Below are positions 4,908-62,482 of a DNA stretch of 64,000 bases, in pieces. Under the pieces are notes generated by a model. That model saw only the letters and a list, made by a program, of their open reading frames with translations. It was not told the DNA's origin and ran no database searches. Numbering within the stretch: the stretch's first letter is position 1; each line of letters opens with the position of its first letter. The stretch is from Candidatus Omnitrophota bacterium (GTDB lineage: Bacteria > Omnitrophota > Gorgyraeia > Gygaellales > Profunditerraquicolaceae): NCBI GenBank assembly GCA_028717245.1, contig JAQUOD010000001.1, positions 85,514-149,513 of the forward strand. The letters run 5' to 3'. The position numbers and the translations under genes were made by a program.

Positions 4908-5021
4908 TTAGCCCTGTTTTTGTTTATGTTTTGGATTAGGACAGATTACCCGGACAATCCCTCTCCTTTTGATAATCTTGCACCTGTCACAGATTTTTTT
5001 TACCGAAGCCTTTACTTTCAC
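4908..5021 (-). CDS. rpmJ: 50S ribosomal protein L36 (37 aa, GTG start), not in ORF track
   Basis: Manual translation: (M)[36 protein letters not shown]; C-x2-C-x12-C-x4-H zinc motif. Confidence 0.85.
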
Positions 5022-5076
5022 CCCGCCCTTCCTTCCGTATATTTCCCCACTCTCCCTTTTTTTAGGAAGGGCGGGG
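5021..5076 (-). promoter_or_regulatory. perfect 12-bp GC-rich stem (ccccgcccttcc / ggaagggcgggg) with 32-nt loop; on mRNA it sequesters the rpmJ GUG start and a GGAAGG SD-like tract
   Basis: Inverted repeat read directly; 3' arm on mRNA ends in the G of GUG. Confidence 0.5.
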
Positions 5077-5084
5077 TTCATATT

Positions 5085-11504: not shown

Positions 11505-11541
11505 AATTACGAGTTACTAGTTACGAGCTTACGAGTTACTG
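11505..11541 (-). repeat. tandem heptamer array TTACGAG/TTACTAG x5 in rplN-rplX spacer
   Basis: aattacgag ttactag ttacgag c ttacgag ttactg. Confidence 0.8.
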
Positions 11542-11545
11542 AAAT

Positions 11546-12195: not shown

Positions 12196-12414
12196 TTAGC
12201 CTTTCTTGACTGACGCCTCTGGGGTAGACTTGGAGATTACGCTTAAAACAGTCTGAATCCTGGCGATATCCCGCTTGATTAAAGAAAACATATGGGGTTT
12301 CTCTACCCTGCCGCCGTAACGCTGCATATTAAGTTTGAATAGGTCCTCTTTTAAGGCCTTTTCCTTTTGCAGCAATTCTTCTTTAGAAAGGTTATGTAAA
12401 TCTTGTATTTTCAT
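12196..12414 (-). CDS. rpmC: 50S ribosomal protein L29
   Basis: 72 aa. Confidence 0.85.
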   Translation of the reverse strand: MKIQDLHNLSKEELLQKEKALKEDLFKLNMQRYGGRVEKPHMFSLIKRDIARIQTVLSVISKSTPEASVKKG

Positions 12415-12437
12415 CCCGCTCTTCCTCTTTTATCTAT

Positions 12438-12464
12438 ATCCCTGCCCATTAGGAAGGGCGGGAT
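12438..12464 (-). repeat. GC-rich hairpin in rplP-rpmC spacer sharing 13-nt motif TAGGAAGGGCGGG with the rpmJ hairpin
   Basis: atccctgccc-attaggaa-gggcgggat; motif identical to 5062-5074. Confidence 0.6.
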
Positions 12465-12469
12465 TCATC

Positions 12470-28609: not shown

Positions 28610-28620
28610 ATTGTCTATCA

Positions 28621-28722
28621 GGTTACGTAAGGTTGCCTAAGGTTACGTAAGGTTCCATAAAGCTGCCTTTTTTAAGGTAACCTTATGTAACGTTATGGAA
28701 CCCCATGGAACGTTAGGTAACA
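28621..28722 (-). repeat. inverted arrays of 10-mers GGTTNNNTAA forming a ~45-bp imperfect hairpin in rplL-rpoB spacer
   Basis: ggttacgtaa ggttgcctaa ggttacgtaa ggttccataa ... ggtaacctta tgtaacgtta tggaacccca tggaacgtta ggtaac. Confidence 0.8.
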
Positions 28723-28729
28723 TTTCTTA

Positions 28730-29122
28730 TTATTTTAATTCTACCGTTGCCCCGGCGGCTTCCAATTTTTTCTTCATCTCCTCAGCCTCTTCCTTAGCTA
28801 CGTTTTCCTTTACGGGCTTGGGAGCTGCGTCTACTAAGTCCTTTGCTTCTTTTAGGCCGAGGCTGGTCATTGTCCTCACTTCTTTTATTACCGCAATCTT
28901 ATTGGCACCTGCGCTAGCCAAAACTACGGTAAAGGTACTTTTTTCTTCCGGCGCTGCGGCAGCGGCCCCTGCAGCAGCCCCCCCGGCAGCTGGTGCCGCC
29001 ATAATCGGCATATTCGCCTGCACGCCGAACTTCTCCTCCAAGGCCTTCACTAAATCCGATAGCTCTAATACGCTCATCTCCTCTATGGATTTAATCAGCC
29101 CTTCCATATTTTCTTTAGCCAT
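28730..29122 (-). CDS. rplL: 50S ribosomal protein L7/L12
   Basis: 130 aa. Confidence 0.9.
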
Positions 29123-29149
29123 TTTATGAACCTCCTTTTAGACAAGTTT

Positions 29150-29221
29150 GTATCAAAGTATCAGGTATCAAGGTATCAAAGTTTTTTCTTTGACACTTTT
29201 GACACATTGATACTTTGACAC
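29150..29221 (-). repeat. GTATCAA/TTGACAC inverted octamer arrays (hairpin, loop ttttttc) in rplJ-rplL spacer, directly upstream of rplL RBS
   Basis: gtatcaaagtatcaggtatcaaggtatcaaag-ttttttc-tttgacacttttgacacattgatactttgacac. Confidence 0.85.
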
Positions 29222-29225
29222 TATT

Positions 29226-29753
29226 TTAGTTTTCTTTCTTCTTCTTTATCTGCTCTAAACAATAAACTAATTTTCTTAAATTCCCCTTAAGAACCATTAC
29301 TAAACCAAAGATAGGTGATTTTAAAGCCATTACAGCCTGATATCTCAAAATTTCCTTACAGGGAAGCCGGGCCATCCTTTCGATATCTTTTTTATCCAGG
29401 ATCTTGTCTTCTAAAAATCCTGCTTCTAATTTTAACTGTTCATGCTCACGGAAAAAGCCATATAACACGCGCGAGGTATCTACTGGTTCTTCTTTGGCAA
29501 ATACTAAACCGCAGGGCCCCTCTACGGACTTAATTAAACCTTCTAAACCGGAGTCTTTCAGGGCGCGCCTGGCTACGCTATTTTTGGTCACGAAGAGCTT
29601 GGCCTTTGCGCCTTTTAGCGATTTCCTCAGGGTAGTCAGATCCGGACTGGATAATTTCGAATATCCCACGATAAAAAGGCCCTGCGATTCCTTAAAATAT
29701 TTTTTAAGGCGGTTTTCCAGAGTTTCCCTGAATACTAAACCCAGTTTTTTCAT
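29226..29753 (-). CDS. rplJ: 50S ribosomal protein L10
   Basis: 175 aa. Confidence 0.9.
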   Translation of the reverse strand: MKKLGLVFRETLENRLKKYFKESQGLFIVGYSKLSSPDLTTLRKSLKGAKAKLFVTKNSVARRALKDSGLEGLIKSVEGPCGLVFAKEEPVDTSRVLYGFFREHEQLKLEAGFLEDKILDKKDIERMARLPCKEILRYQAVMALKSPIFGLVMVLKGNLRKLVYCLEQIKKKKEN

Positions 29754-31807: not shown

Positions 31808-31957
31808 TCATTTTATCTCCTTGTGGAGGGTATGCTTATAACAGAATCTGCAGAACTTTTTTATCTCTAACTTATCCTGATGCAATTTTTTATTCTTAGT
31901 GGTGGTATAATTCCTATTTTTACAAACCGTGCATTCTAATGTAATAATTTCGCGCAT
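31808..31957 (-). CDS. rpmG: 50S ribosomal protein L33 (49 aa, C4 zinc ribbon), not in ORF track
   Basis: Manual translation [49 protein letters not shown]. Confidence 0.85.
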
Positions 31958-31963
31958 CTTTGT

Positions 31964-32035
31964 AGTGTCAAGGTGTCAAAGTATCAGAGTGTCAAAGTAA
32001 AACTTTGATACCTTGATACATGATACTTTGATACA
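31964..32035 (-). repeat. GTGTCAA/TTGATAC inverted octamer arrays (hairpin) between rpmG and tRNA-Thr
   Basis: gtgtcaaggtgtcaaagtatcagagtgtcaaag-taaaac-tttgataccttgatacatgatactttgatac. Confidence 0.85.
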
Positions 32036-32044
32036 GCTTTTACA

Positions 32045-32117
32045 AGCTGGAGACGGGAATCGAACCCGTGACCCCGTCCTTACCAAGGACGTGCTCTACC
32101 GACTGAGCTACTCCAGC
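32045..32117 (-). tRNA. tRNA-Thr (anticodon GGT), no encoded CCA end
   Basis: GCTGGAGTAGCTCAGTCGGTAGAGCACGTCCTTGGTAAGGACG...GGTTCGATTCC...CTCCAGCT. Confidence 0.9.
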
Positions 32118-33362: not shown

Positions 33363-34300
33363 CTGTATGCGAGCATGGTTGCCTCAATTAATGATGCGGG
33401 ATTGGCCAACCGGTAGTTTTTTGCGATATCAAAGGCAGTCCCGTGTAAAGGAGATGTTCTGATAAAAGGAATGCCCAATGTCAAATTTACACCGCTAAAG
33501 CCGGCTGATACCTTCAAAGGGATTAATGCCTGGTCGTGATACATGGCAATCATGCAGTCGTATTGTTTTTGCAGTGTTTTTAAGGCTGCTATATCCGCCC
33601 CCTGCGGCCCGGCTATGCTTATGCCTTTTATTTTTTTTCTTAAAAGCGACAGAACAGGTTTAATCACCCTATTTTCTTCCTTTCCTATCAGCCCATTATC
33701 AGAGGCGTGCGGATTAAGCCCGCACAATACGATGCGCGGGTTTCTTGTACGGAAGAGTTTTTTTAAGGATTCATAAGTTAAAATTACGGTTTGAAATATT
33801 GCTTTTTTGCTTAAGCATAGGGGGACGTCTTTTAAAGCAATGTGGCGCGTAACCAGGGTGATTTTTAATTTTTTATTTAAAAGCATCATGGCAAAATTTT
33901 TCGTATTTGTAACAGAGGCCAAATATTCCGTATGCCCGCTGAAATTTTTAAACCCCGCCAAACTCACTGCCTCCTTGGATATAGGGCAGGTAACCAGAGA
34001 ATCTATCTTGTTATGATTAATTAAATCCATTGCCTTATCCAGGTATTCTATGGATGCCTTGCCATATTCAGCCCGCATTTCACCGAATCTAAAATTTTTA
34101 CGTGCTACATTATTTAAATCTATAAATTTTATATCTGACACCTGACACCTGGCACCTGACACCTGATTAAATACCCACCTATCTCCTATGATAACAAAAT
34201 CAGCCAAACCTCTTAATTGAGGTATTGCTTTAGCGATAATAGCAGGGCCTACACCCGCCGGGTCGCCTATGGTAATGCCGATTTTTATTTTATTATGCAT
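33335..34300 (-). CDS. pdxA: 4-hydroxythreonine-4-phosphate dehydrogenase
   Basis: IGITIGDPAGVGP..., HTEY, synteny surA-pdxA-rsmA. Confidence 0.9.
   Translation of the reverse strand: MHNKIKIGITIGDPAGVGPAIIAKAIPQLRGLADFVIIGDRWVFNQVSGARCQVSDIKFIDLNNVARKNFRFGEMRAEYGKASIEYLDKAMDLINHNKIDSLVTCPISKEAVSLAGFKNFSGHTEYLASVTNTKNFAMMLLNKKLKITLVTRHIALKDVPLCLSKKAIFQTVILTYESLKKLFRTRNPRIVLCGLNPHASDNGLIGKEENRVIKPVLSLLRKKIKGISIAGPQGADIAALKTLQKQYDCMIAMYHDQALIPLKVSAGFSGVNLTLGIPFIRTSPLHGTAFDIAKNYRLANPASLIEATMLAYRCTLNQKKD
34135..34165 (-). repeat. in-frame tandem heptamer tract CACCTGA/CACCTGG x4 inside pdxA (encodes periodic QVSGARCQVS)
   Basis: ctgacacctgacacctggcacctgacacctg. Confidence 0.8.
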
Positions 34301-34310
34301 TTATTTGTTT

Positions 34311-34392
34311 CCGTAATCCGTAATTGGTAATTCGTAATTCTTATTTTATTTTAAAAAATTACGATTTACGATTTATGAATTACGATTTACGG
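34311..34392 (-). repeat. inverted heptamer arrays CCGTAAT x4 / ATTTACG x5 (hairpin) in pdxA-surA spacer
   Basis: ccgtaatccgtaattggtaattcgtaatt ... aattacgatttacgatttatgaattacgatttacgg. Confidence 0.85.
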
Positions 34393-34417
34393 CTTTTAAA
34401 TTACTATTTACTAAAAG

Positions 34418-35365
34418 TTAATCTTGCATAATTTTAATATAAGACTGCTTTTTGAGTTCGTCCAACCACGTTGCTAATGCCTCTTGCATCTTTTGGTCAA
34501 AAAGGAAGGTATAAATATCACCCTGGGCCCCAGAGATACTTTGCTGCCGGGGGGGTATTATATTATCCAGTTTAAAAATATAATATTGTTCTTCTATTTT
34601 GACCGGTGCGGAGATTTCACCTACCTTCAACCTGAATATTTTTTCTTCGATGTCTTTTCTCAACTGCCCATTCCCTGCCCCGCTCATTTTATTTACAGCC
34701 AGGAAATATTTACTGGCGACATCCTGAAATTCCTGCCCATTCCTTAAATCATTAAAGACTTTGCTCGCCAGGTCCTCTTCACCGGTATTTATGGATTCAA
34801 ATTCGCGCTGTTCGGGTAGTTTAAATTTATCGATGTTTTGCTGATAGAAATCGGTGACTTCTGCGGGATTAACCAGAATCTTGCTCTTTATCTTTATTTC
34901 GATAATAGTATACATAAGCAGCTGGTCTCTTATCTTTGATTCTAAGTCTGCCTGCACCAGCCCTTGCTTAGCCAGGGAAGTTTGAAAATCCTTCTCTGAA
35001 TCGTAACGCCTGCGGATATCGTCTATCCTAGCTTTGATCCTGCTCTCGTCTATTCTGATATTGCTTTTTTTGGCTTCCTGTAAAATAATGCGGTCTTCAA
35101 TAAGCTTGTCCATTAAATCCAGCTTTATAGATTGCATTTTACTTTCCAGGCTTCTCCCTTTAAATTCTCCCATTAATTGTACGCGCGTAAAATTAACGAA
35201 GTCGTCTAAGTCTTTCTGGGTGATGACATCGTTATTCACGATAGCGACGATTTTGTCTTCGGCGTGTAAGTTGTAAGCTGTAAGTTGTAAGCTGTAAGCA
35301 ATGGAAAAAAGCAAAAATAATGATATTTTTAAACCCTTTAACCCTTGGTTTTTGATTTTATCCAT
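34418..35365 (-). CDS. surA: SurA-like periplasmic chaperone/peptidyl-prolyl isomerase (signal peptide, short form)
   Basis: 315 aa, N-terminal signal peptide; position upstream of pdxA-rsmA as in E. coli. Confidence 0.6.
   Translation of the reverse strand: MDKIKNQGLKGLKISLFLLFSIAYSLQLTAYNLHAEDKIVAIVNNDVITQKDLDDFVNFTRVQLMGEFKGRSLESKMQSIKLDLMDKLIEDRIILQEAKKSNIRIDESRIKARIDDIRRRYDSEKDFQTSLAKQGLVQADLESKIRDQLLMYTIIEIKIKSKILVNPAEVTDFYQQNIDKFKLPEQREFESINTGEEDLASKVFNDLRNGQEFQDVASKYFLAVNKMSGAGNGQLRKDIEEKIFRLKVGEISAPVKIEEQYYIFKLDNIIPPRQQSISGAQGDIYTFLFDQKMQEALATWLDELKKQSYIKIMQD
35264..35299 (-). repeat. in-frame tandem heptamer tract (C/T)TGTAAG x5 inside surA signal-peptide region (encodes AYSLQLTAYNLH)
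   Basis: gtgtaag ttgtaag ctgtaag ttgtaag ctgtaag c. Confidence 0.8.
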
Positions 35366-39478: not shown

Positions 39479-39778
39479 TTAATTTCCCGGGTTTATGCCT
39501 TGTGTTTTCTTGATATAAGCTATGCAATTTTTCTCTATTTCTATCTTTACGTTATCGTCTACCCTTAAGATTACGCTCTTATCCTTTACATTAATGATTG
39601 TGCCATGGATGCCGCTGGAGGTCACTACCTCATCATTCTTATTAAGGCTGCTCAACATCTTCTGGTGTTCTTTCTCCTTTGTTTTTTGCGGACGGATAAG
39701 CAGAAAATAAAAAATAACGAAGATAAGGATTAACGGAAAAAACTGCATGATAGGATTAACTGCCGGTGCCTGTGGCAT
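39479..39778 (-). CDS. yajC: preprotein translocase subunit YajC
   Basis: 99 aa, single TM. Confidence 0.8.
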   Translation of the reverse strand: MPQAPAVNPIMQFFPLILIFVIFYFLLIRPQKTKEKEHQKMLSSLNKNDEVVTSSGIHGTIINVKDKSVILRVDDNVKIEIEKNCIAYIKKTQGINPGN

Positions 39779-39779
39779 C

Positions 39780-40034
39780 TTATGCCTCCTTTTGGGTAAC
39801 GGATTGTTTTTTCATCAGACTTTTAACTGTCAGAGAAAGCTGGGCGCCATTCTTTTTCCAGAATTCCAGCCTCTCCTTATTTATCCTGGTAGCCCCTGAA
39901 ACCGGATTGTAAAAACCTATTTCTTCGATGAACTTACTATCCCGCCCGGAGCGTTCATCAAAGACGCTGAGGCGAAAATGCGGCCTCTTCTTGGGATTTT
40001 TACCTATCCTTCTTAGACGTATAATTACTGCCAT
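39780..40034 (-). CDS. rpsP: 30S ribosomal protein S16
   Basis: MAVIIRLRRIGKNPKKRPHFRL... Confidence 0.9.
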   Translation of the reverse strand: MAVIIRLRRIGKNPKKRPHFRLSVFDERSGRDSKFIEEIGFYNPVSGATRINKERLEFWKKNGAQLSLTVKSLMKKQSVTQKEA

Positions 40035-40062
40035 TTCGTTAGCCTCCTTTTTAGATACGTTT

Positions 40063-40125
40063 GTATCAAAGTGTCAGGTATCAGGGTATCAAAGTTTTTT
40101 CTTTGATACTTTGATACTTTGACAC
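40063..40125 (-). repeat. GTATCAA/TTGATAC inverted octamer arrays (hairpin, loop ttttttc), paralogue of the 29150-29221 element; abuts trpE stop and rpsP RBS
   Basis: gtatcaaagtgtcaggtatcagggtatcaaag-ttttttc-tttgatactttgatactttgacac. Confidence 0.85.
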
Positions 40126-41612
40126 TATTTAACAATTGCCTCTATTAATGCCTTTGCCTTGTTTATAGATTCCTGGTATTCATTTTTTGGCACCGAATCA
40201 GCGACGATACCGGCACCTGCCTGAATATATGCCATCCCATCTTTAATAATTACGGTCCGAAGGGTTATGCAGGTATCCATATTATGCGAAAAGCTGAAAT
40301 ACCCTACGCATCCGGCATAGGGCCCGCGCCTTAAATTTTCCAGCTCGTCTATAATTTCCATAGCGCGTATCTTAGGGCTGCCGCTTACTGTCCCGGCGGG
40401 AAAACAGGCCCTTAAAACATCGTAGATATTATATCTCTTATCCAAAATACCCTCAACTTCACTGACTATATGCATTACGTGGGAGTATCTTTCTATGGAC
40501 ATAAACTCACTCACCGCTACCTTGCCTTTTTTACAGACCTTGCCTAAATCATTCCTGCCTAAATCTACCAGCATCAGGTGTTCTGCGCGTTCTTTCTTAT
40601 CTTCAAGAAGCTCCTTTTCTAATTGCTTGTCTTCTTTTTCATTTTTCCCGCGGGGCCGGGTACCGGCAATAGGCCGGGTGCGGGCAATGCCGTCTTCACA
40701 GCGTACCAGTATCTCAGGAGAAGAGCCGACTAAGGTAACTTCCTTTAATTTCAAAAAAAACATATAGGGAGAAGGGTTCAGGCTCCTTAAATCCCTGTAG
40801 ATATCGAAGGGGTCTTTATCTATCTTTATTTCAAAGCGCTGCGACAATACTGTCTGGATGATATCCCCCTTTTTTATATAATCCCTCGCCTTATTTACTA
40901 TTTTACAAAATTCCTTTTCTTTAAAGTTAGAAATTACTTTTATGCTGCGCTTACCAGTATCATTACGCTTTGCTTTCTTGAGCAAGGGTTTCTTCAGTTC
41001 ATTGCATATGGAATCTATTTTTTTCAGCGCCTGATAATAAATCTGCGTTTTTTTAACCCGGGGGATTTTTTTATGCGCCGGCAGGATAATGTTAACAATG
41101 ATCTTTATGGTATGGTTAATATGGTCAAAGACTAGGATGCTATCGGTAAGTATAAAGACGGAATCGGCGATCTTTAGGTCATCCGGATTTCTATCGGGCA
41201 GGTCCTCAAAGAACCTTACCATATCATAAGCCATGAAACCCACGAGCCCTCCGTAAAAGCGCGGTAGTTCTTTAATCCGGGCGGCCTTAAAATCCTGCAT
41301 GATTTTTTTAATTTCATCCAGGGGGTCATTGCGGGTAACAAAATGCCTGGCTGAACTTCTTGCAGGATAAATGACCCGGACATCCCTGCCTTTACTTCTA
41401 AAAATAAGCGCGGGGTTACTCCCTAAGAAAGAATAGCGGGCGATCTTTTCCTGTCCTTCTACGGACTCAAGGAGAAAGGCATAATCGCCTTTTTTTATTT
41501 TTAAGAAGGCAGACACAGGCGTATCTAAATCCGCGCTGATCTCCTGATAAACCGGAATAAGATTATATTTTTTAGATAGTTCCAGAAATTCTTTTAGTGA
41601 TGGATAGTACAT
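40125..41612 (-). CDS. trpE: anthranilate synthase component I
   Basis: TPVSAFLKI, LLESVEGQEKIARYSF motif. Confidence 0.8.
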   Translation of the reverse strand: MYYPSLKEFLELSKKYNLIPVYQEISADLDTPVSAFLKIKKGDYAFLLESVEGQEKIARYSFLGSNPALIFRSKGRDVRVIYPARSSARHFVTRNDPLDEIKKIMQDFKAARIKELPRFYGGLVGFMAYDMVRFFEDLPDRNPDDLKIADSVFILTDSILVFDHINHTIKIIVNIILPAHKKIPRVKKTQIYYQALKKIDSICNELKKPLLKKAKRNDTGKRSIKVISNFKEKEFCKIVNKARDYIKKGDIIQTVLSQRFEIKIDKDPFDIYRDLRSLNPSPYMFFLKLKEVTLVGSSPEILVRCEDGIARTRPIAGTRPRGKNEKEDKQLEKELLEDKKERAEHLMLVDLGRNDLGKVCKKGKVAVSEFMSIERYSHVMHIVSEVEGILDKRYNIYDVLRACFPAGTVSGSPKIRAMEIIDELENLRRGPYAGCVGYFSFSHNMDTCITLRTVIIKDGMAYIQAGAGIVADSVPKNEYQESINKAKALIEAIVK

Positions 41613-41622
41613 ATTGGGCTTT

Positions 41623-41676
41623 GAGCTTTAAGTTGTAAGCCATAAGCTTAAAGCTTAGAGCTTACAGCTTATAGTC
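41623..41676 (-). repeat. heptamer array AGCTTAN (consecutive agcttaa agcttag agcttac agcttat) with inverted partner; overlaps hisI stop codon
   Basis: gagctttaagttgtaagccataagcttaaagcttagagcttacagcttatag. Confidence 0.85.
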
Positions 41677-42018
41677 TATTTTTCTATAAAAGCACGATCT
41701 ATTTCCCGTATGGCAGGCAACGCCTGACTGGCGCACCTTAATCAGCAACGCATCCATATCGCAATCGTAAGCCACTGACTTGACAAGCTGGTAATTACCC
41801 GACGTTGCGCCTTTAATCCAGTAAACTTTGCGCGAGCGCGACCAGAAGCAGGTCTTGCCTGTTTTCAACGTCCTCTTTAGAGAAAATATATTCATATAAG
41901 CGAGCATGAGCACTTCACCGCTTCTATAGTCCTGTATTATCGCGGGGATTAACCCCTGTTTATCCAGCTTTAATTTTTTTAAACTAAATCCTTTTTTCAT
42001 TTTTATAGGCGCACGCAT
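41662..42018 (-). CDS. hisI: phosphoribosyl-AMP cyclohydrolase
   Basis: GLIPAIIQD...LMLAYMN...YWIKGATSG...[10 protein letters not shown]. Confidence 0.9.
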
Positions 42019-42758
42019 ACCCCTTTTTCTTTCAGATATTCCTTTACCTGCCTGACGGTATATTCCTGGTAATGAAAGATGGAGGCTGCCAAGCTTGCAG
42101 AAGCCTCTGTTTTAGCCAGGACATCATAAAAATGCTCCGGTTTTCCTGCCCCACCGGAAGCTATCACCGGAATGTTCACCTTTTGCGCGACAGCCCTGGT
42201 TAAAGGTAAATCGTAACCGTCTTTGGTGCCGTCATAGTCCATACTTGTCAGGAGTATCTCACCTGCACCCAGTTCCTCTGCTTTTTTTGCCCACTCCAGG
42301 GCATCTAATTCCGCAGAGGTCCTGCCACCGTTAATATAAACCTGCCAGCTATTGTCCTGTTTCTTTGCGTCTATCGCTACCACGATACACTGACTGCCGA
42401 ATTTTCTGGAAGCATCGCTGATTAAATCCGGGCATTTTACCGCCGCGGTATTTATGGAAACTTTATCCGCGCCTGCATTTAAAAGGTCGCGGATATCTTC
42501 AATATCCCTGATTCCGCCGCCTACGGTAAAAGGCATAAATATATTCTCGGCGATCTTCTCGACCAAACCAATAAGCGTCTTCCTGTTCTCAAAACTGGCA
42601 GTAATATCTAAAAATACTAGCTCATCTGCCTGCTGCTGGTCGTAAATCTTAGCTACTTCAACAGGGTCGCCCGCGTCCTTTAAGGCCACAAACCTCATAC
42701 CTTTAACCACCCTGTTTTCTTTGATATCCAGGCAGGGGATAATACGTTTCGTTAACAT
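42003..42758 (-). CDS. hisF: imidazole glycerol phosphate synthase cyclase subunit
   Basis: [13 protein letters not shown]... Confidence 0.9.
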
Positions 42759-42765
42759 TTATTTT

Positions 42766-42818
42766 GCTTTAAGTTGTAAGCTATAAGCTGTAAGCTTAAA
42801 GCATAAAGCTTATAGCTA
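42766..42818 (-). repeat. tandem heptamer array GCTNTAA x7; overlaps lipoprotein stop codon, 8 nt upstream of hisF start
   Basis: gctttaa gttgtaa gctataa gctgtaa gcttaaa gcataaa gcttata gcta. Confidence 0.85.
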
Positions 42819-43268
42819 TTTAACTTTCTTATCCAAATACCCTTTCAGCAAGTCCCAGGTTTTATTACCCATTTTACCATCTGGACTGAGATTATTTGCT
42901 TTCTGAAAAGCCCTTATTGCTTCACGGGTCTGCTTACCCATACGGCCATCAACAGATCCGGGATTATAGCCGGCATTAGTTAAAGCAACCTGTATCTGTT
43001 TTATAGTTGGCCGTGATTTTGTTTCTTGGCTGACCTTCTTTTTACCTGTTGCTTTTACCAGGCTTTCTTTCTGCTCAACAGTACTAGTTAAGGTGTCCCT
43101 TAGGCCGCCGATCTCTTGGTCTTTGGCTTCAATTTCTGCCTGTAAAACCGAAATCTGATTTTTTAATCCCTGAATTTCCAAATCCTTATCTTTGCGGCCG
43201 GTAGCGCATCCACCCAGAGAAATTAGAAAAATAGAACAGACGAAAAAAATAACTACCCTTTTAAACAT
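42816..43268 (-). CDS. lipoprotein with coiled-coil and C-terminal peptidoglycan-binding (PG_binding_1-like) domain
   Basis: signal peptide + lipobox LGGC; ...GYNPGSVDGRMGKQTREAIRAFQKANNLSPDGKMGNKTWDLL. Confidence 0.7.
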   Translation of the reverse strand: MFKRVVIFFVCSIFLISLGGCATGRKDKDLEIQGLKNQISVLQAEIEAKDQEIGGLRDTLTSTVEQKESLVKATGKKKVSQETKSRPTIKQIQVALTNAGYNPGSVDGRMGKQTREAIRAFQKANNLSPDGKMGNKTWDLLKGYLDKKVK

Positions 43269-43290
43269 ACCTGCCTCCTTTTTTTACCTC

Positions 43291-44010
43291 TTATAATATT
43301 TTTATGGCCTCAGCTAAAGTAAATTTTCCTTCATATAAGGCCTTGCCTATAATTACACCTACTAATTCTTTTTTATCCAGCAGCCTAAGTTTAGATATAT
43401 CAGCCAGAGAAGAAATCCCGCCTGAAGCAATCACCCCTAAGCCTGTTTCCTTAATTATACTCTTTATGCCTTTTATATTAGGTCCCTTTAAAGTCCCGTC
43501 CTTGAGGATATCAGTATAAATTACCTGCTTAAACCCTATTTGTTTTAAGCGGCATGCCAACTTTAAGATATCTACGCTTGCGGAATTACTCTGCCAACCC
43601 TTGGCTAAGACACGGTTAGCCTTAGCATCAAGGCTAACGATAATCTTATCTTTAAATTTCTTAAAGGATTTTTCCAGAAAACCCTTATCTTCTACTGCCT
43701 TAGTGCCCAAAATTATACGCCAGATACCGCAATCAAGCAATGTTTTTATTATTATTTCATTTCTTACGCCGCCGCCGAATTGAACGGGTACGTCTATCTC
43801 TTTTACTATCTTTTTTACTATATCCAGGTTTTTCGGCTTACCGCTTATCGCGCCGTCTAAGTCTACTATATGGATTAACCTTGCTCCCTGTTTCTGCCAG
43901 TGCCGGGCAGTCTTTAGGGGGTCGCGGGAATAAACCTTTTTGTCAAATCTTCCCTGCGTGTATCTGACTACACACCCATCTTTTAAATCTATAGCGGGAA
44001 TGATTAGCAT
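43291..44010 (-). CDS. hisA: ProFAR isomerase
   Basis: MLIIPAIDLKDGCVVR... Confidence 0.9.
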   Translation of the reverse strand: MLIIPAIDLKDGCVVRYTQGRFDKKVYSRDPLKTARHWQKQGARLIHIVDLDGAISGKPKNLDIVKKIVKEIDVPVQFGGGVRNEIIIKTLLDCGIWRIILGTKAVEDKGFLEKSFKKFKDKIIVSLDAKANRVLAKGWQSNSASVDILKLACRLKQIGFKQVIYTDILKDGTLKGPNIKGIKSIIKETGLGVIASGGISSLADISKLRLLDKKELVGVIIGKALYEGKFTLAEAIKIL

Positions 44011-44639
44011 AATTCTACAAAATTTTTCAGTATTTTTAAACCGGTTTCCTGGCTTTTCTCAGGATGAAACTGCACGCCGTATATATTCTCCCGCCAAAGA
44101 ACCGGGCTAAAGCTAATCCCGTATTCAGTAGTAGCAGCGATGATATCTTTATCCTTGGGTTGCGGATAATAGGAATGGCAGAAATATACGTAAGCATTAT
44201 CCGGTATATCTTTTAACAGGGGGCATTCCTTTGACACCTTGACACCCTGACACCTTGATACTATTTTCAACTGGTTCCAGCCCATATGCGGGACCTTCAA
44301 ATTGCCTTTAATTTTAAATTTCTTTACCTCGCCTTTTAATATCCCTAATCCTTTTATCCCTTTTGCTTCATCGCTTCTCTCAAAGAGAAGCTGCATCCCT
44401 AAACAGATACCCAGAAATATCTTTTTTGCCTTAATATGCTCCTTTAGCGCCGTCAACAGATCCTGTTTCTTTAATTCTGCTACAGCATCGGCGAATGCCC
44501 CTACCCCCGGCAATACTACCTTATCACAAACCTTGATATCTGCGGGCTTGTTGGTAACTATTGTCTTTGCGCCCATAGACTCTAAGGCCTTTTGCACGCT
44601 ATGAATATTTCCCATGCCGTAGTCAATTATGGCAATCAT
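44004..44639 (-). CDS. hisH: imidazole glycerol phosphate synthase glutaminase subunit
   Basis: MIAIIDYGMGNIHSV..., GICLGMQ, HSY. Confidence 0.9.
   Translation of the reverse strand: MIAIIDYGMGNIHSVQKALESMGAKTIVTNKPADIKVCDKVVLPGVGAFADAVAELKKQDLLTALKEHIKAKKIFLGICLGMQLLFERSDEAKGIKGLGILKGEVKKFKIKGNLKVPHMGWNQLKIVSRCQGVKVSKECPLLKDIPDNAYVYFCHSYYPQPKDKDIIAATTEYGISFSPVLWRENIYGVQFHPEKSQETGLKILKNFVELC
44229..44262 (-). repeat. in-frame octamer tract TTGACACC x3 inside hisH (encodes SRCQGVKVSKE; about 9-aa insertion relative to HisH homologs)
   Basis: ctttgacaccttgacaccctgacaccttgatactatttt. Confidence 0.8.
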
Positions 44640-46482: not shown

Positions 46483-49097
46483 TTTAGTTCCCTGATAATC
46501 TCTTTAAGTTTCTTGAATGCCTGCGGAAAATTCTCCGGTTTATTTCCCCCTGCCTGGGCAAAATCCTTCCTGCCTCCGCCGCTACCGCCGATTTCCGGGG
46601 CGATTGCTTTTATTATCTTAGCGCTATCAATATCTAAAATTTGCGTATTTAAATTTGTACCCGTAACCAACAGGGCCCCTCCAACGGAAGTAGTTGTCCC
46701 TAAGGCAACGATAACGCTTTTTTCCTTCGCTTTGATTAAATCCACGGCCTTTCTTAAGGCGTCCATATCCTGGCCTTCAATAAAACGGGCGATAACATTA
46801 ATACCGTTAATAATTTCTCCCTCTTTAATATAATTATCTATTGAGGCTCTAAGCATATCCGTCTTGCGGTAACTTAGCTTTTTTTCCAGTTCTTTTATCT
46901 GAAATAGCTTCTTCTCTAATTCCTGGGTTATCTTTTGGCTAGGGACATTTAAAAGAGAAGAAATATCAGCCAGGATATTCTCTTCTTCCTTAAGCGCCTT
47001 ATAGGCACAATCTCCTGTAAGCGCTTCTATCCTTCTTATCCCGCTGGCTATCGACCCCTCGTTAACTATCTTAAAGAGCCCGATTTGGCCGGTGCATTCA
47101 AGGTGTGTTCCGCCGCAGAGTTCTTTAGAGAAATCTCCGATTGCTACCATACGCACCTTTTCTGCGTATTTCTCCGTAAAGAATGCCAATGCCCCTTGTC
47201 TTTTAGCCTCTGCGAGGGTCAGCGTCTTTGCCTTCAAGCACGTATTATTTACTATGTAGTTATTGACTAATCCTTCTATTCTATCCAACTGTTCCCTAGT
47301 CACATCCTTAAAATGCGTAAAGTCAAAACGTAATCTATCTTCGGCTACTAATGAACCTTGCTGTTGCACATGCGCTCCCAAAATTACGCGTAATGCTGCC
47401 TGCAATAGGTGTGTGGCAGTATGATTTCTGGCTATGGATAGCCTGCGTTTAATATCCACACAGGACATTAACTCATCTGTGGTTCTAAAACTTCCGGTTT
47501 TTACCCTTCCTTTATGCACAATAACATTATCAAATTTACGGGTACCGGTTATCTGAAAGACATTCTTCCCTTTTATCAATTCACCCGTATCGCCTACCTG
47601 GCCGCCGGATTCAGGGTAAAGAACGGTTTTATCTAAAATTATCCGGGCCTCTTCGCCCGCGCTTATTTTTTTTACCGGAGTATTATCTTTAATAATCTTG
47701 ATAACCTTTGCCTTTGTCTCGTATTTGGAGTAACCCAGAAAACTAGTCTTAGCGCCTGCTAAATGCAATTCTTTAATATCAAAGACATCGCCTTTCATCC
47801 GACTCTGTAATTTAGAACGGTTTTTCTGCTCTCCTAATTCCTTATCAAATGCCTCCTGCGAGAAATTTATGCCGGCTTTCTCCAGCCAACCCCTGGTTAA
47901 CTCTAAAGGTATCCCGTAGGTATCGTACAACTGAAAGGCAAGCCTGCCGGCCCTTTGCGCGTCCTGCTTATTACTAAAACCCTTAAATTTTTCTTCAAAC
48001 AAAACGCTGCTAGAATCTAAAGTAGAAATAAAATTATTCTCTTCAGCCAGAATAATCTGGGAGATATTTTCTTTACGTTTATCCAACTCTGGATATGGCA
48101 ACTTCATAATATCGGATAAAAGAGGGGTTAATTTATAAAGAAAAGGTTTAGCTATCCCTAACGCCCTTAAATGCAGCATGCTTTTACGGATTATTTTTCT
48201 TACTACATACCCGCGGCCTTCATTAGAAGGCAATACGCCATCATAAATAGCAAAAACAATGGCACGTATATGGTCACTAACAGCATAAATAAATTCCTTA
48301 TCTGACACTTTGACACTTTGACACTTTGACACTATCTCTTTCACTATGGGTTGGAATAAATCCGTTTCAAAATTATTCGGCACCCCCTGCATAACCGCTG
48401 CCAATCTTTCCAGCCCCATACCCGTGTCAATATTCTTTTTGGGTAAAGGTTCTAATTTTCCGTCTGCTTTGCGGTTAAATTGTGTAAACACTAAATTCCA
48501 TATTTCCGGGAACCTGCCGCAACTGCAAGCCGGGCCGCAGCCAGGCTTCCCGCAACCTGCGCCCTGGTCAAAGAATATCTCAGAACATGGCCCGCATGGC
48601 CCATTTGGGCCGTTAGCTTTGGCTTCTGATGGCCAGAAATTTTCTTTATCGCCTAATTTTACGATTTTATTTACCGGAACCTTTATTTTATCTTTCCATA
48701 TGTTATACGATTCATCATCGTCTTTATATACAGAAACCCAGAGTTTATCTTCTTTAATCTTAAGCTCTTCGGTCAGGAACTCCCACGCCCAGGTAATTGC
48801 CTCTTCCTTAAAATAGTCCCCGAAAGAAAAATTTCCCAGCATCTCAAAAAAGGTATGGTGAGACGGGGTCTTGCCTACCTTATCTAAATCATCGGTGCGC
48901 AGGCAGCGCTGGCTGCTGGCAGCGCGGCTAAAACCGGTTAAATGCCCCAGGAATTGCCTCTTGAATTGGTTCATTCCGGCAGGAGTAAATAATACGGTAG
49001 GGTCGTCCTTGGGGATAAGCGAATCGCTTTCTACGATTTTATGCTTTTTAGCTTTAAAAAAGATGGGGAATTTTTCTCTTAATAAATCCGCTTTCAT
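46479..49097 (-). CDS. alaS: alanine--tRNA ligase
   Basis: start MKADLLREKF at 49097 overlapping recX stop (ATGA..TAA); ORF-track start 49154 is an extension. Confidence 0.9.
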   Translation of the reverse strand: MKADLLREKFPIFFKAKKHKIVESDSLIPKDDPTVLFTPAGMNQFKRQFLGHLTGFSRAASSQRCLRTDDLDKVGKTPSHHTFFEMLGNFSFGDYFKEEAITWAWEFLTEELKIKEDKLWVSVYKDDDESYNIWKDKIKVPVNKIVKLGDKENFWPSEAKANGPNGPCGPCSEIFFDQGAGCGKPGCGPACSCGRFPEIWNLVFTQFNRKADGKLEPLPKKNIDTGMGLERLAAVMQGVPNNFETDLFQPIVKEIVSKCQSVKVSDKEFIYAVSDHIRAIVFAIYDGVLPSNEGRGYVVRKIIRKSMLHLRALGIAKPFLYKLTPLLSDIMKLPYPELDKRKENISQIILAEENNFISTLDSSSVLFEEKFKGFSNKQDAQRAGRLAFQLYDTYGIPLELTRGWLEKAGINFSQEAFDKELGEQKNRSKLQSRMKGDVFDIKELHLAGAKTSFLGYSKYETKAKVIKIIKDNTPVKKISAGEEARIILDKTVLYPESGGQVGDTGELIKGKNVFQITGTRKFDNVIVHKGRVKTGSFRTTDELMSCVDIKRRLSIARNHTATHLLQAALRVILGAHVQQQGSLVAEDRLRFDFTHFKDVTREQLDRIEGLVNNYIVNNTCLKAKTLTLAEAKRQGALAFFTEKYAEKVRMVAIGDFSKELCGGTHLECTGQIGLFKIVNEGSIASGIRRIEALTGDCAYKALKEEENILADISSLLNVPSQKITQELEKKLFQIKELEKKLSYRKTDMLRASIDNYIKEGEIINGINVIARFIEGQDMDALRKAVDLIKAKEKSVIVALGTTTSVGGALLVTGTNLNTQILDIDSAKIIKAIAPEIGGSGGGRKDFAQAGGNKPENFPQAFKKLKEIIRELK
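48302..48333 (-). repeat. in-frame octamer tract TTGACACT x4 inside alaS (encodes SKCQSVKVSDKE)
   Basis: ctgacactttgacactttgacactttgacact. Confidence 0.8.
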
Positions 49098-58634: not shown

Positions 58635-58643
58635 ATCTTTTTT

Positions 58644-58702
58644 GGCACCTGGTGCAAATTCAATCGGGTACCTGGTGCGAATTTAAGATTGTACCTGTCC
58701 CC
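58644..58702 (-). repeat. 57-nt element copy A (two CACCTGGTGC palindromes 23 nt apart) in etfB-etfA spacer
   Basis: ggcacctggtgcaaattcaatcgggtacctggtgcgaatttaagattgtacctgtccc; about 90% identical to 60671-60728. Confidence 0.8.
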
Positions 58703-58706
58703 AGCG

Positions 58707-60652: not shown

Positions 60653-60670
60653 CCCTTCCTCCTAAAAATT

Positions 60671-60728
60671 AACACCTGGTGCAAAGTCAATCGGGCACCT
60701 GGTGCGAAACTAATCTTGTACCTGTCCC
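60671..60728 (-). repeat. 57-nt element copy B in the 5'UTR of the acyl-CoA dehydrogenase gene, between predicted promoter and RBS
   Basis: aacacctggtgcaaagtcaatcgggcacctggtgcgaaactaatcttgtacctgtccc. Confidence 0.8.
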
Positions 60729-60746
60729 TTTAAATAAATCTTAAGA

Positions 60747-60774
60747 ATTATACCATACTGAAATTATTTTACAA
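60747..60774 (-). promoter_or_regulatory. candidate sigma70 promoter TTGTAA-16-TATAAT for bcd-etfBA; -35 overlaps the GNAT gene stop codon
   Basis: rc reads TTGTAAaataatttcagtatggTATAAT. Confidence 0.4.
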
Positions 60775-61218: not shown

Positions 61219-61224
61219 CTTCTT

Positions 61225-61260
61225 CGGCTTATAGCTTACAACTTATGGCTTACGGCTATT
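61225..61260 (-). repeat. tandem heptamer array (G/A)GCTTA(T/C) x5 overlapping glgC stop codon
   Basis: cggcttat agcttac aacttat ggcttac ggctatt. Confidence 0.8.
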
Positions 61261-62482
61261 TAATTTCTGCCCCCTTCTCCACTACCACGATGCCCGATTT
61301 GGTAACATAAAACCTTTTTCTATCCTCTTCAAGATCATAGCCGATTACCATACCTTGCGGGATATGCACATCCTTATCAATAATGGCCTTTTTTATCTTG
61401 GCGTATCTGGCTACATTGACGCCTTCCATAATTATAGAATCATAAACCTCTGAATAGCTGTGGATTCTTACATCCGGAGAAAGTATAGAACGCTGAACTT
61501 TGCCTCCGCTGACAATGCATCCTCCGGCAATCAGTGAATCCAGCACCAGCCCGACGCGGCCGGTGATCTGATCCCCGGAAAAGACTGTCTTAGCCAGGGG
61601 AAACTGCTCTTGATAGGTCCTGATCGACCAGTCTTTATCGTAAAGATTAAATACCGGGTCAACCTGCACTAAATCCATATTTGCTTCATAATAAGCATCA
61701 ATAGTTCCGATATCCCGCCAATACTGCGCCTCTTTTTTATTCTCATCAACAAAATTAAAAGCAACGACCTTAAGGCCTTTTTTGAGCATCTGCGGGATGA
61801 TGTCTTTGCCGAAATCATGGGTAGAATTGTGTTTCTTAGCGTCCTGCTGCAGTTCCTCTTCCAGGACCGGATGTTTAAAAACATAGATGCCCATAGAGGC
61901 ATAGACCTTATCCTGATTCTGGGGTATGGTCTTGGGCCTTGCCGGCTTCTCCTGAAAACCGCTCACCCTGCCTATTGCGTCTACCTCTACTACGCCTAAA
62001 TGCGGGGCTTTATTTTTATCCATCTCTACCACCCCGACGGTCAAATCCGCATCAGCCTGACGATGAAAATCTATCAGGGTATAATAATTCATTTTATAGA
62101 TGTGGTCTCCGGCCAGGATTAAAACTTCATCCGGATTATCAATTTCCAGGGTATAGAGGTTTTGATAAATGGCATCGGCAGTGCCTAAATACCAGGAATC
62201 CCCTACTCTTTGTTGTGCCGGTAATAATTCGATAAACTGGCCTAACTCAGAAGGCAGGATATTCCATCCCAAACGGATGTGCCTCTGTAAAGATGCGGAC
62301 TTATATTGCGTGAGGACATAAATTTTGCGCAGCCCCGAATTGATGCAATTACTCAGGGTAAAATCAATAATCCGGTATATCCCGCCAAAAGGCACTGCGG
62401 GTTTGGTGCGGTCTTTGGTCAGGGGCAATAGCCGCTCGCCCTTACCGCCTGCCATGATAAAAGTTAAAACGCGTTTCCTCAT
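61256..62482 (-). CDS. glgC: glucose-1-phosphate adenylyltransferase
   Basis: [25 protein letters not shown]. Confidence 0.9.

Follow-up and report, generated by a model that had tools for sequence, protein, structure and literature searches.

A dispersed palindromic repeat of tandem octamers in operon junctions of Candidatus Omnitrophota, a putative intercistronic RNA stem-loop

A 64 kb stretch of a Candidatus Omnitrophota metagenome-assembled genome, referred to below as the window, carries nearly all of its genes on the minus strand and holds three full copies of a hairpin-forming repeat built of tandem octamers, here called E1, E2 and E3. Omnitrophota is an uncultured phylum with compact genomes that is held to belong to the PVC superphylum. 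E1 separates rplJ from rplL, E2 separates trpE from rpsP, and E3 lies between a tRNA-Thr gene and rpmG; rplL, rplJ, rpsP and trpE were assigned by NCBIfam matches, and the L10 protein encoded by rplJ is 100% identical to the NCBI proteins MDD4979878.1 and MDD5591803.1. Loci and contigs of other genomes and metagenomes that were compared with the window are labeled with L-numbers (L004, L013, L061 etc.). The copies and their neighbors are as follows.

28730-29122, minus strand: rplL (ribosomal protein L7/L12), downstream of E1
29131-29226, minus strand: E1, full tailed copy in the rplJ-rplL spacer (profile score 72 bits on the minus strand; fold z -8.0)
29226-29753, minus strand: rplJ (L10), upstream of E1
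31808-31957, minus strand: rpmG (L33), downstream of E3, with its start at 31957
31958-32044, plus strand: E3, full untailed copy between tRNA-Thr and rpmG, inverted relative to E1 and E2 (75 bits on the plus strand)
32045-32117, minus strand: tRNA-Thr (GGT), upstream of E3
39780-40034, minus strand: rpsP (S16), downstream of E2
40044-40130, minus strand: E2, full tailed copy in the trpE-rpsP spacer (62 bits on the minus strand; fold z -6.1)
40125-41612, minus strand: trpE, upstream of E2, its stop codon being the TAG of the E2 tag
44221-44266, minus strand: half copy in hisH, consisting of the tag AAATAG and four units of the 5' arm type, in frame and encoding KIVSRCQGVKVSK
48300-48335, minus strand: half copy in alaS, consisting of GATAG and four GTGTCAAA units, in frame and encoding EIVSKCQSVKVS

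Anatomy and folding of the window copies

Read on the mRNA strand, a full copy consists of the hexamer AAATAG, four imperfect GTRTCAAA units, an A-rich loop and four inverted TTTGAYAC units; the G of AAATAG is at the same time the first base of the first unit, and one of the four TTTGAYAC units is a 7-mer. The element is about 65-95 nucleotides (nt) long, and its stems comprise ~22-31 pairs across the hairpin loci. A tailed subfamily ends in a mini-hairpin, GATAC-AAAC-GTATC, in which 5 bp are possible, followed by TAAAAAGGAGG, with GGAGG as the Shine-Dalgarno (SD) sequence of the downstream gene; the tail shared across the tailed copies is ACAAACGTATCTAAAAAGGAGG, and its form in E1 and E2 is ACAAAC-GTATC-TAAAA(A)GGAGG. 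In E1 the tag AAATAG (29226-29221, mRNA strand) overlaps the last A of the rplJ TAA stop codon and is followed by a 5' arm of four octamers (29221-29188), an A6 loop (29187-29182), a 3' arm (29181-29150), the tail ACAAACTTGTCTAAAA (29149-29136) and the rplL SD GGAGG (29135-29131). E2 is laid out alike, with its tag at 40130-40125, a 5' arm of three units (40125-40101), an A6 loop (40100-40095), a 3' arm of four units (40094-40063), the tail ACAAACGTATCTAAAAA (40062-40049) and the rpsP SD (40048-40044). The gene order around E2 (39479-44639) is unusual: hisH, a hisA-like gene, hisF, hisI and trpE lead directly into rpsP and yajC, such that a ribosomal protein gene stands directly downstream of amino acid biosynthesis genes with E2 as the sole separator.

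A first-pass annotation of this DNA had described two near-identical hairpins between a stop codon and the SD of rplL and of rpsP, and both are present as described; 83 of 103 aligned columns are identical on the mRNA strand (81%). The difference is mostly one 9-nt (one-unit) indel, outside of which 90% of the shorter copy is identical, and both the A6 loop (ttttttc on the plus strand) and the two flanks are common to E1 and E2. The "cctcc" noted at the left edge does match the SD complement, being simply the opposite-strand reading of the downstream gene's GGAGG. The third copy of that annotation is also real, at 31958-32044, but it lies 3' of tRNA-Thr rather than upstream and is inverted with respect to the other two. 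It begins 10 nt 3' of the tRNA gene and ends 7 nt 5' of the rpmG start codon, with the tag GTAG on the plus strand (31962-31965). An nhmmer profile made from 12 copies scores E3 at 75 bits on the plus strand versus 50 on the minus, whereas E1 and E2 score 72 and 62 bits on the minus strand versus 45 on the plus, and E3 is thus the same element inverted; its identity to E1 is 76% on the opposite strand and 68% on the same strand.

Partial copies in hisH and alaS, likewise predicted at first pass, were recovered by the profile search, which gives a total of three full and two half copies in the window. Both in-gene copies consist of a tag and four stop-free units. The hisH copy forms an insertion of 9-16 residues relative to solved HisH structures, while that in alaS sits in a variable loop and adds no net length. 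The unit TTTGAYAC itself occurs 20 times in the window against 3.5 expected. The copies also share irregularities of their units, with unit lengths of 8-8-7-8 in one arm and spacers that run AAA/AAT/AGA/AAAG in the opposite arm. E1 and E2 are not assembly artefacts: E2 is reproduced exactly in two independent Logan assemblies, and two other Logan contigs break inside an arm of E1 with ends that overlap consistently with the window, as is expected of short-read assemblies at a multi-copy repeat.

As mRNA-strand RNA, E1 is predicted to fold at -37.8 kcal/mol (z -8.0) and E2 at -31.9 kcal/mol (z -6.1), and none of 200 shuffles folded as well. The rplJ-rplL spacer of E. coli, which had been called unstructured, indeed reaches only -8 kcal/mol (z -0.9). 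The stem of tailed copies includes neither the SD nor the start codon, both of which are predicted to be free, and this makes simple masking of the SD unlikely there. Mismatches between the arms are mostly G opposite T, which leaves the palindrome imperfect as DNA but lets one strand fold with G.U wobbles. Where the stem varies among 12 aligned copies, G.U is the commonest pair, A-U the second and A.C rare. A scan with Rfam 15 at permissive E-values, r-protein leaders included, passed only two tRNAs, and comparison of the hairpins with miRNA-precursor models gave chance-level matches (E 0.09-0.9) far below the gathering score. Similarity of the unit to the 16S rRNA 3' end and to PUF-type 8-nt sites was considered and dropped as unsupported.

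Copies in other genomes, position, conservation and turnover

A 22-nt signature of one arm was scanned in one genome per species (185,579 species) and in JGI metagenomes, which yielded 8 and 25 loci, respectively; the signature is strict, and these counts are therefore lower bounds that are biased to close family members. Tailed full hairpins lie in groES-groEL of Omnitrophica WOR_2 RIFCSPLOWO2_01_FULL_41_12 (L013, L016) and of a related contig (L026), in rpsB-tsf of Omnitrophica UBA1562 (L015, L025), in trpE-rpsP of a syntenic relative (L032b), and in rplJ-rplL of another relative (L061, L062). Untailed hairpins are found at rpmI-rplT, rny-ymdB, icd-mdh, panE-polX and TPR-exbB and 5' of dnaE and rarA, and untailed copies also occur in a Planctomycetales metagenome-assembled genome and in metagenome contigs without an assigned taxon. 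On the basis of the non-repetitive features and the order of irregular units that the copies share, they are judged to descend from one master sequence. The view of the first-pass annotation that the copies are paralogous is upheld by the shared irregularities, loop and flanks and by the tailed copies at unrelated junctions elsewhere; further copies with conserved flanks, whose absence was to have told against that view, were thus found. A BLAST search of E1 against plasmid and phage collections gave zero matches, to which the low-complexity filter may contribute.

Direct-only arrays of the octamer unit, which is 8 nt long but also has variants of 7 nt, were found in metagenome-assembled genomes of Curtissbacteria, Saccharimonadales, Draconibacterium and Sulfurovum as well as in several contigs from metagenomes; such arrays were seen at L009, L010, L027 (about 20 units), L036 and L038. 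The Draconibacterium genome (L011, 3411-3559 and 6849-7045) and L027 (1528-1770) display long runs in which differing heptamer and octamer arrays stand abreast, with GGATACT, TCATTAG, TTGATAC, CATTAAA and CACTCATT x10 as units (TTGATAC being that repeated ~20 times in L027), and these runs resemble the long arrays reported in Bacteroidetes for TAACTGA. The viral contigs L044, L051, L052 and L053 (IMG/VR, 60-61% G+C) contain clusters of GGTATCA and GTATCAAAG units, both direct and inverted, with a spacer of ~50 nt; they adjoin a divergently oriented gene start and look like operator or iteron arrays.

The position of the hairpins follows a rule. Gene context could be interpreted for 13 independent hairpin loci, and at every one of them the genes on either side are co-directional; the first unit is no more than 10 nt from the upstream stop codon (or tRNA end) at 9 of the 13, and the last unit lies 7-30 nt 5' of the downstream start codon at 11 of 12. 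Given these short distances on both sides, the element makes up nearly the whole intercistronic spacer. In untailed copies (E3, L014, L019, L033a and L029) the arm ends 7-15 nt from the start codon, i.e. in the position of the ribosome-binding site. Genes of translation or chaperones are found at six or seven of the 13 junctions (rplJ|rplL, rpsP, rpmG, groESL, rpsB|tsf, rpmI|rplT, pheT). The copies form a dispersed, tagged palindromic family that is confined to intercistronic spacers and conserved above neutral expectation.

The conservation is seen at orthologous sites. E1 is 82% identical to its counterpart in L061 (93% outside indels), E2 is 77% identical to L032b, E3 is 92-93% identical to L017 or L032a, and L013 and L026 are 84% identical. 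By comparison, third-codon or four-fold sites of the flanking genes are 35-55% identical, and no other spacers can be aligned. The alignments suggest that the element sequence is kept far above the neutral level, for which either selection or continuing homogenization could be the cause. The number of units differs between orthologs (3+4 in E2 and 4+4 in L032b; 4+4 in E1 and 3+4 in L061), which shows that slippage acts on the arrays.

Turnover is most apparent at the rplJ-rplL junction. The window and L061 carry the octamer element there, L004 a hairpin of AAATCCC-type units, L017 a hairpin of GTTTACA-type units, and L058 possibly another array (GGTGATT repeats) that is cut by the contig end; in L007, L057 and L059 the two genes abut or overlap and the SD lies inside rplJ. 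Such empty or differently filled sites argue for insertion instead of an ancient structure, and were counted for the reading preferred below. E3 is absent from L004 and L007, which by rplA identity are closer to the window than L017 is; L032 carries no rplA, and its coding DNA is 66-74% identical to the window versus 72-82% for L004 and L007. The spread is thus patchy, E1 or E3 being absent in the closer L004, L007 and L057 and present in the more distant L061, L017 and L032.

Some further features of these relatives were noted in passing. The rplK-rplA (700-815) and rplL-rpoB (2497-2578) spacers of L061 share a ~65-nt repeat (GGGACTGACTCCGCAGATATC...GGTGTCTGTCCCACGACAA), part of which resembles the L007 rplL-rpoB hairpin, and L004 has a 201-residue open reading frame (1592-2197) between rsmA and tRNA-Thr, with no precomputed Pfam match, that is absent from the window.

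Other unit families and the AAATAG tag

Beyond what the first-pass annotation had described, the window genome and its relatives hold many hairpin families of 7-10-nt tandem units, which differ at the same rplJ-rplL junction. The window has many further arrays of such units, often as inverted pairs that fill a spacer, and octamer-carrying loci of other genomes also carry other unit families. Some of them are listed here, followed by the AAATAG sites at arrays.

28610-28729, minus strand: 10-mer hairpin (AGGTTACGTA, inverted arrays, GTTAC core), fills the rplL-rpoB spacer
34301-34417, minus strand: 7-mer hairpin CGTAAAT/AATTACG (also CGTAATT/TTACGAG), between a surA-like gene and pdxA
41613-41681, minus strand: TAAGC-type 7-mer hairpin or array between hisI and trpE, preceded by AAATAG
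42759-42821, minus strand: TAAGC-type 7-mer hairpin 5' of hisF; the upstream gene ends in TTAAATAG
61219-61261, minus strand: TAAGCYR 7-mer direct array in an intercistronic spacer; the upstream gene ends in TTAAATAG
29221-29226, 40125-40130, 44261-44266, 34404-34409, 41676-41681, 42816-42821 and 61256-61261, minus strand: AAATAG sites at arrays

Homologous 10-mer hairpins occupy rplL-rpoB in L004 (5628-5740) and L057 (1925-2050), whereas the structure in the rplL-rpoB spacers of L007 and L061 is of another kind and richer in G+C. The E. coli counterpart of this spacer contains an attenuator together with an RNase III site. The CGTAAAT/AATTACG family also forms the rplL-rpoB hairpin of L059 (2190-2275), and its member in the window at 34301-34417 has AAATAG (34409-34404) ~12 nt 5' of its first clear unit.

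The hexamer recurs at the ends of arrays of different units. Seven of the 50 sense-strand AAATAG in the window are at or within ~12 nt of the 5' end of an array, belonging to at least three unit families; in a formal test 6 of 36 array flanks contained AAATAG, where 0.2 were expected (p = 4e-8), and for the non-octamer families alone AATAG was enriched at p = 0.002. Of the 60 genes called in the window, ten terminate with TAG, and an array follows each of the three whose end is TTAAATAG (two unit families). From these counts AAATAG may be a shared array end or target motif. Exact AAATAG is not enriched outside the window genome (1 of 160 flanks), where only the TAG ending is general: by eye, a tetranucleotide ending in TAG stands at one end, on either strand, of about 9 GATAC-type hairpin loci, mostly as ATAG (E1, E2, hisH, L013, L029, L010), as GTAG in E3, L032b and L039, and as TTAG in L019 and L036. 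A role of the tag as a general supplier of sense-strand stop codons was rejected, the tag being antisense in E3, L014, L019, L024 and L029.

Further repeats occur in the window. The CGTAATT/TTACGAG family forms a direct array at 11507-11545, upstream of 11546. Two heptamer arrays lie within genes: TGTAAGC x5 at 35265-35299, close to where the surA-like gene begins at its 5' end, and CTGACAC x4.6 at 34135-34166 in pdxA, which shows a weak relationship to the octamer element (nhmmer E = 0.014). Two G+C-rich palindromes (CCCGCCCTTCC...GGAAGGGCGGG) on the minus strand at ~5013-5078 and ~12410-12469, in spacers of ribosomal-protein operons, are a repeat family distinct from the tandem-unit hairpins. 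Spacers in a cluster of electron-transfer flavoprotein (ETF) and acyl-CoA dehydrogenase genes (58635-58706 and 60653-60768) share a repeat with a period of ~23 nt (GCACCAGGTGCC...GATTGA.TTTGCACCAGGT).

Competing readings and comparison with known systems

With moderate confidence we regard E1-E3 not as structures that evolved in place for rplL or rpsP but as copies of a dispersed palindromic repeat of Candidatus Omnitrophota, similar to the repetitive extragenic palindromic (REP) elements and the miniature inverted-repeat transposable elements (MITEs), that acts as an intercistronic RNA stem-loop. Copies have survived only at sites that a compact genome can tolerate, and sometimes the tag supplies the stop codon. 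Spread would be by a single-strand, tag-directed copy-and-paste process of the REP/RAYT type, and an imperfect palindrome with G opposite T would lessen palindrome instability in the DNA at little cost in the RNA. In the operon mRNA a stem of ~30 bp would impede 3' exonucleases and/or offer a site for RNase III-type processing, thereby protecting the 3' end of the upstream cistron and uncoupling the stability of the two cistrons, much as REPs stabilize upstream mRNA. Close to the stop codon the stem could also hinder the terminating ribosome; Liang, Rudd and Deutscher reportedly found in 2015 that E. coli REPs within ~15 nt of the stop codon lower upstream expression via ribosome stalling. With its SD unpaired, the tail would leave the downstream gene open to translation, and the effect of the stem on expression would be what selection preserves. 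A stem-loop function between cistrons is what we infer from these features taken together.

Several observations weigh against this. Although the hairpin is conserved among the 12 aligned copies, no compensatory covariation was found, the stem pairs being either invariant or changed on one side only. Of the 13 independent loci, 6 fold better as sense RNA, 6 fold better as antisense RNA (E2 and E3 included) and 1 favors neither strand, and with the sense strand better in only 6 of 13, a role of the mRNA-strand RNA is not a general rule. The identity of orthologous copies could stem from concerted evolution or from repeated re-insertion, and alignment identity is inflated by low-complexity arrays. 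No clear target-site duplication was seen at the copies: CTAAAA stands on both sides of E1 only, there is only TAAA at E2, L013 and L026, and nothing at L015. No parent insertion sequence of the element was seen either, and the 64 kb hold housekeeping genes only, with no transposase or other candidate partner protein.

A serious rival, although on the whole a doubtful one, is a selfish or neutral repeat that spreads without benefit to the host, is intercistronic since insertions elsewhere are lethal, and is kept uniform through concerted evolution by transposition, gene conversion or slippage. The lack of covariation, the patchy phyletic distribution (E1 and E3 missing in closer relatives and present in more distant ones), the turnover of unit families at rplJ-rplL, the occurrence of both orientations and the in-frame copies in hisH and alaS are all as such a repeat would have them. 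However, three orthologous sites keep 77-93% identity across lineages in which synonymous sites are saturated, which in the absence of selection needs continuous homogenization or repeated insertion at exactly the same sites, and copies are overrepresented between the genes of strongly expressed operons for translation and chaperones.

A lesser rival, which we consider unlikely, is that the 7-8-bp units are contiguous sites in double-stranded DNA for a polymerizing protein, as an operator or a centromere-like or nucleoid-organizing array, with the hairpin incidental. Ribbon-helix-helix proteins bind arrays of this kind, such as omega of pSM19035 (7-bp heptads, direct or inverted) and MetJ (8-bp metboxes). 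Conservation of the unit sequence itself across phyla, beyond pairing, agrees with this, as do the variable orientation relative to transcription and the direct-only arrays (~20 units in L027; L009, L036, L038); from the operator- or iteron-like viral GGTATCA and GTATCAAAG arrays by divergent gene starts, the same unit may serve as a protein-binding site on duplex DNA in other contexts. On the other hand, several unrelated unit families per genome replace each other at one junction, so that each would call for a protein of its own, the sites lie inside operons and not at promoters, and no candidate protein was identified. The arms moreover differ systematically (GTGTCA versus the complement of GATAC), which fits wobble pairing in a single strand but not a single binding specificity for duplex DNA.

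It is quite improbable that the element is a translational operator, in which the hairpin masks or exposes the ribosome-binding site of rplL or rpsP or binds an autoregulatory ribosomal protein. E1 and E2 are immediately 5' of the SD, the untailed copies occupy the ribosome-binding position, and the analogous TAACTGA repeats have been proposed as sites of post-transcriptional regulators (PMC4679880); but in tailed copies SD and start codon are predicted to be free of the stem, the genes served (groEL, tsf, rpsP, rplL) are unrelated, and no Rfam r-protein leader matched. A conserved r-protein operator is ruled out, given that the closest relatives lack the octamer element altogether at rplJ-rplL.

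Even less credence can be given to an intrinsic terminator or attenuator, or to an outward-facing promoter based on the TTGACA within the unit. The stem is strong, the antisense strand has CTATTT(T) after it, and a -35/-10-like pair (TTGACA, 17 nt, TATTTT) is present on the plus strand of E1. On the mRNA strand, however, a terminator scan gave no terminator-like site at E1, E2 or E3, and an intrinsic terminator is ruled out there, the stem being A/U-rich with an A-rich 3' side and followed by AAAC... with no U tract; promoter-like matches in the region are at the level of shuffled sequence (30 versus 28.7) and are not conserved between copies. Finally, the independent expansion by slippage of unrelated hairpins in place from short palindromes, with which the varying unit number of orthologs agrees, is least probable of all and already refuted by the tag, loop, tail, mini-hairpin and unit-specific irregularities that are shared across loci and genomes.

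A non-coding family fills core-operon junctions (rplJ-rplL, groES-groEL, rpsB-tsf, rpmI-rplT, rpsP) and keeps its sequence across lineages in which synonymous sites are saturated, and it links two phenomena that have been treated separately, tagged palindromic REP-like repeats and 7-8-nt tandem repeats by start codons. Junctions that are empty in some relatives and filled by differing unit families in others provide concrete testable cases. Were the stem-loop to alter mRNA processing or upstream termination, it would be a mobile means of rewiring cistron stoichiometry. In practical terms, the elements break short-read assemblies in ribosomal operons, and gene callers can mis-set stops and starts there.

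A broader conjecture, which we hold to be rather unlikely, is a cross-phylum system in which a RAYT-like or other enzyme writes or moves direct or inverted unit arrays beside an (A)ATAG tag at gene boundaries. The unit families would then be interchangeable modules of one system, cassettes that bring their own stop (TAG) and, in the tailed form, their own ribosome-binding site. Operon junctions would thereby be rebuilt, overlapping genes such as rplJ and rplL separated and relative cistron expression reset, and the STRR and TAACTGA repeats of cyanobacteria, Beggiatoaceae and Bacteroidetes would be explained as well.

The octamer hairpin resembles REP/MITE and short-tandem-repeat elements of other bacteria; of this variant no description was found, the searchable literature containing no mention of a GTRTCAAA-type octamer repeat and no description of repeats in Omnitrophota. 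Correia (NEMIS) elements of Neisseria, ERIC/IRU and RUP are MITEs or hairpin repeats of ~100 nt that are co-transcribed with operons, and those of the Correia type undergo RNase III processing and can change how neighboring genes are expressed. Like these, the octamer element approaches 100 nt, can form long mRNA hairpins and lies near genes in either orientation. Unlike MITEs, which have terminal inverted repeats, a unique core, a target-site duplication and a parent insertion sequence, it consists in its entirety of palindromic tandem units. Rickettsia palindromic elements (RPE) of ~100-150 bp insert in frame into protein genes and are translated throughout. The hisH copy similarly adds an in-frame peptide segment of 9-16 residues; the octamer element is unrelated to RPE in sequence, is shorter and tandemly built, and only its stop-free arm survives inside genes.

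The TAACTGA heptamer repeats of marine Beggiatoaceae, Cyanobacteria and Bacteroidetes (MacGregor 2015, PMC4679880), and with them the cyanobacterial STRR, share with the octamer element units of 7-8 nt in short tandem arrays that are intergenic and often end a few nt 5' of a start codon in place of a recognizable ribosome-binding site. They also share the occasional in-frame copies in open reading frames, the presence of stop codons in one orientation, the occurrence of the same unit in distant phyla and the lack of a known mechanism or function. TAACTGA arrays are almost all direct, however, with one inverted set in 170 in BOGUAY, whereas the octamer element typically consists of two inverted arrays as a hairpin with defined ends and identifiable flanks.

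The GTAG-tagged REP superfamily (Di Nocera et al. 2013, PMC3733652), known among others from the PVC superphylum, comprises palindromes of 20-40 bp with a stem of 6-13 bp that carry an unpaired GTAG at one end with the first G conserved. REPs are dispersed in high copy number, lie downstream of coding regions between unidirectional or convergent open reading frames, and are mobilized by RAYT (TnpA-REP) tyrosine transposases (Y1 HUH type) whose genes they flank. With stems of ~22-31 pairs in 65-95 nt made of tandem octamers, the element studied here falls outside the size range of REPs; its tag is mostly ATAG, with GTAG only in E3, L032b and L039, and one subfamily has a tail with a mini-hairpin and an SD. 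It nevertheless shares with REPs a dispersed palindrome with, at about 9 hairpin loci, an unpaired TAG-ending tetranucleotide at one end only, a location mostly downstream of open reading frames and between unidirectional genes (co-directional at 13 of 13 loci, within 10 nt at 9 of 13), frequent G-T pairs in the stems, several families per genome and some copies inside genes.

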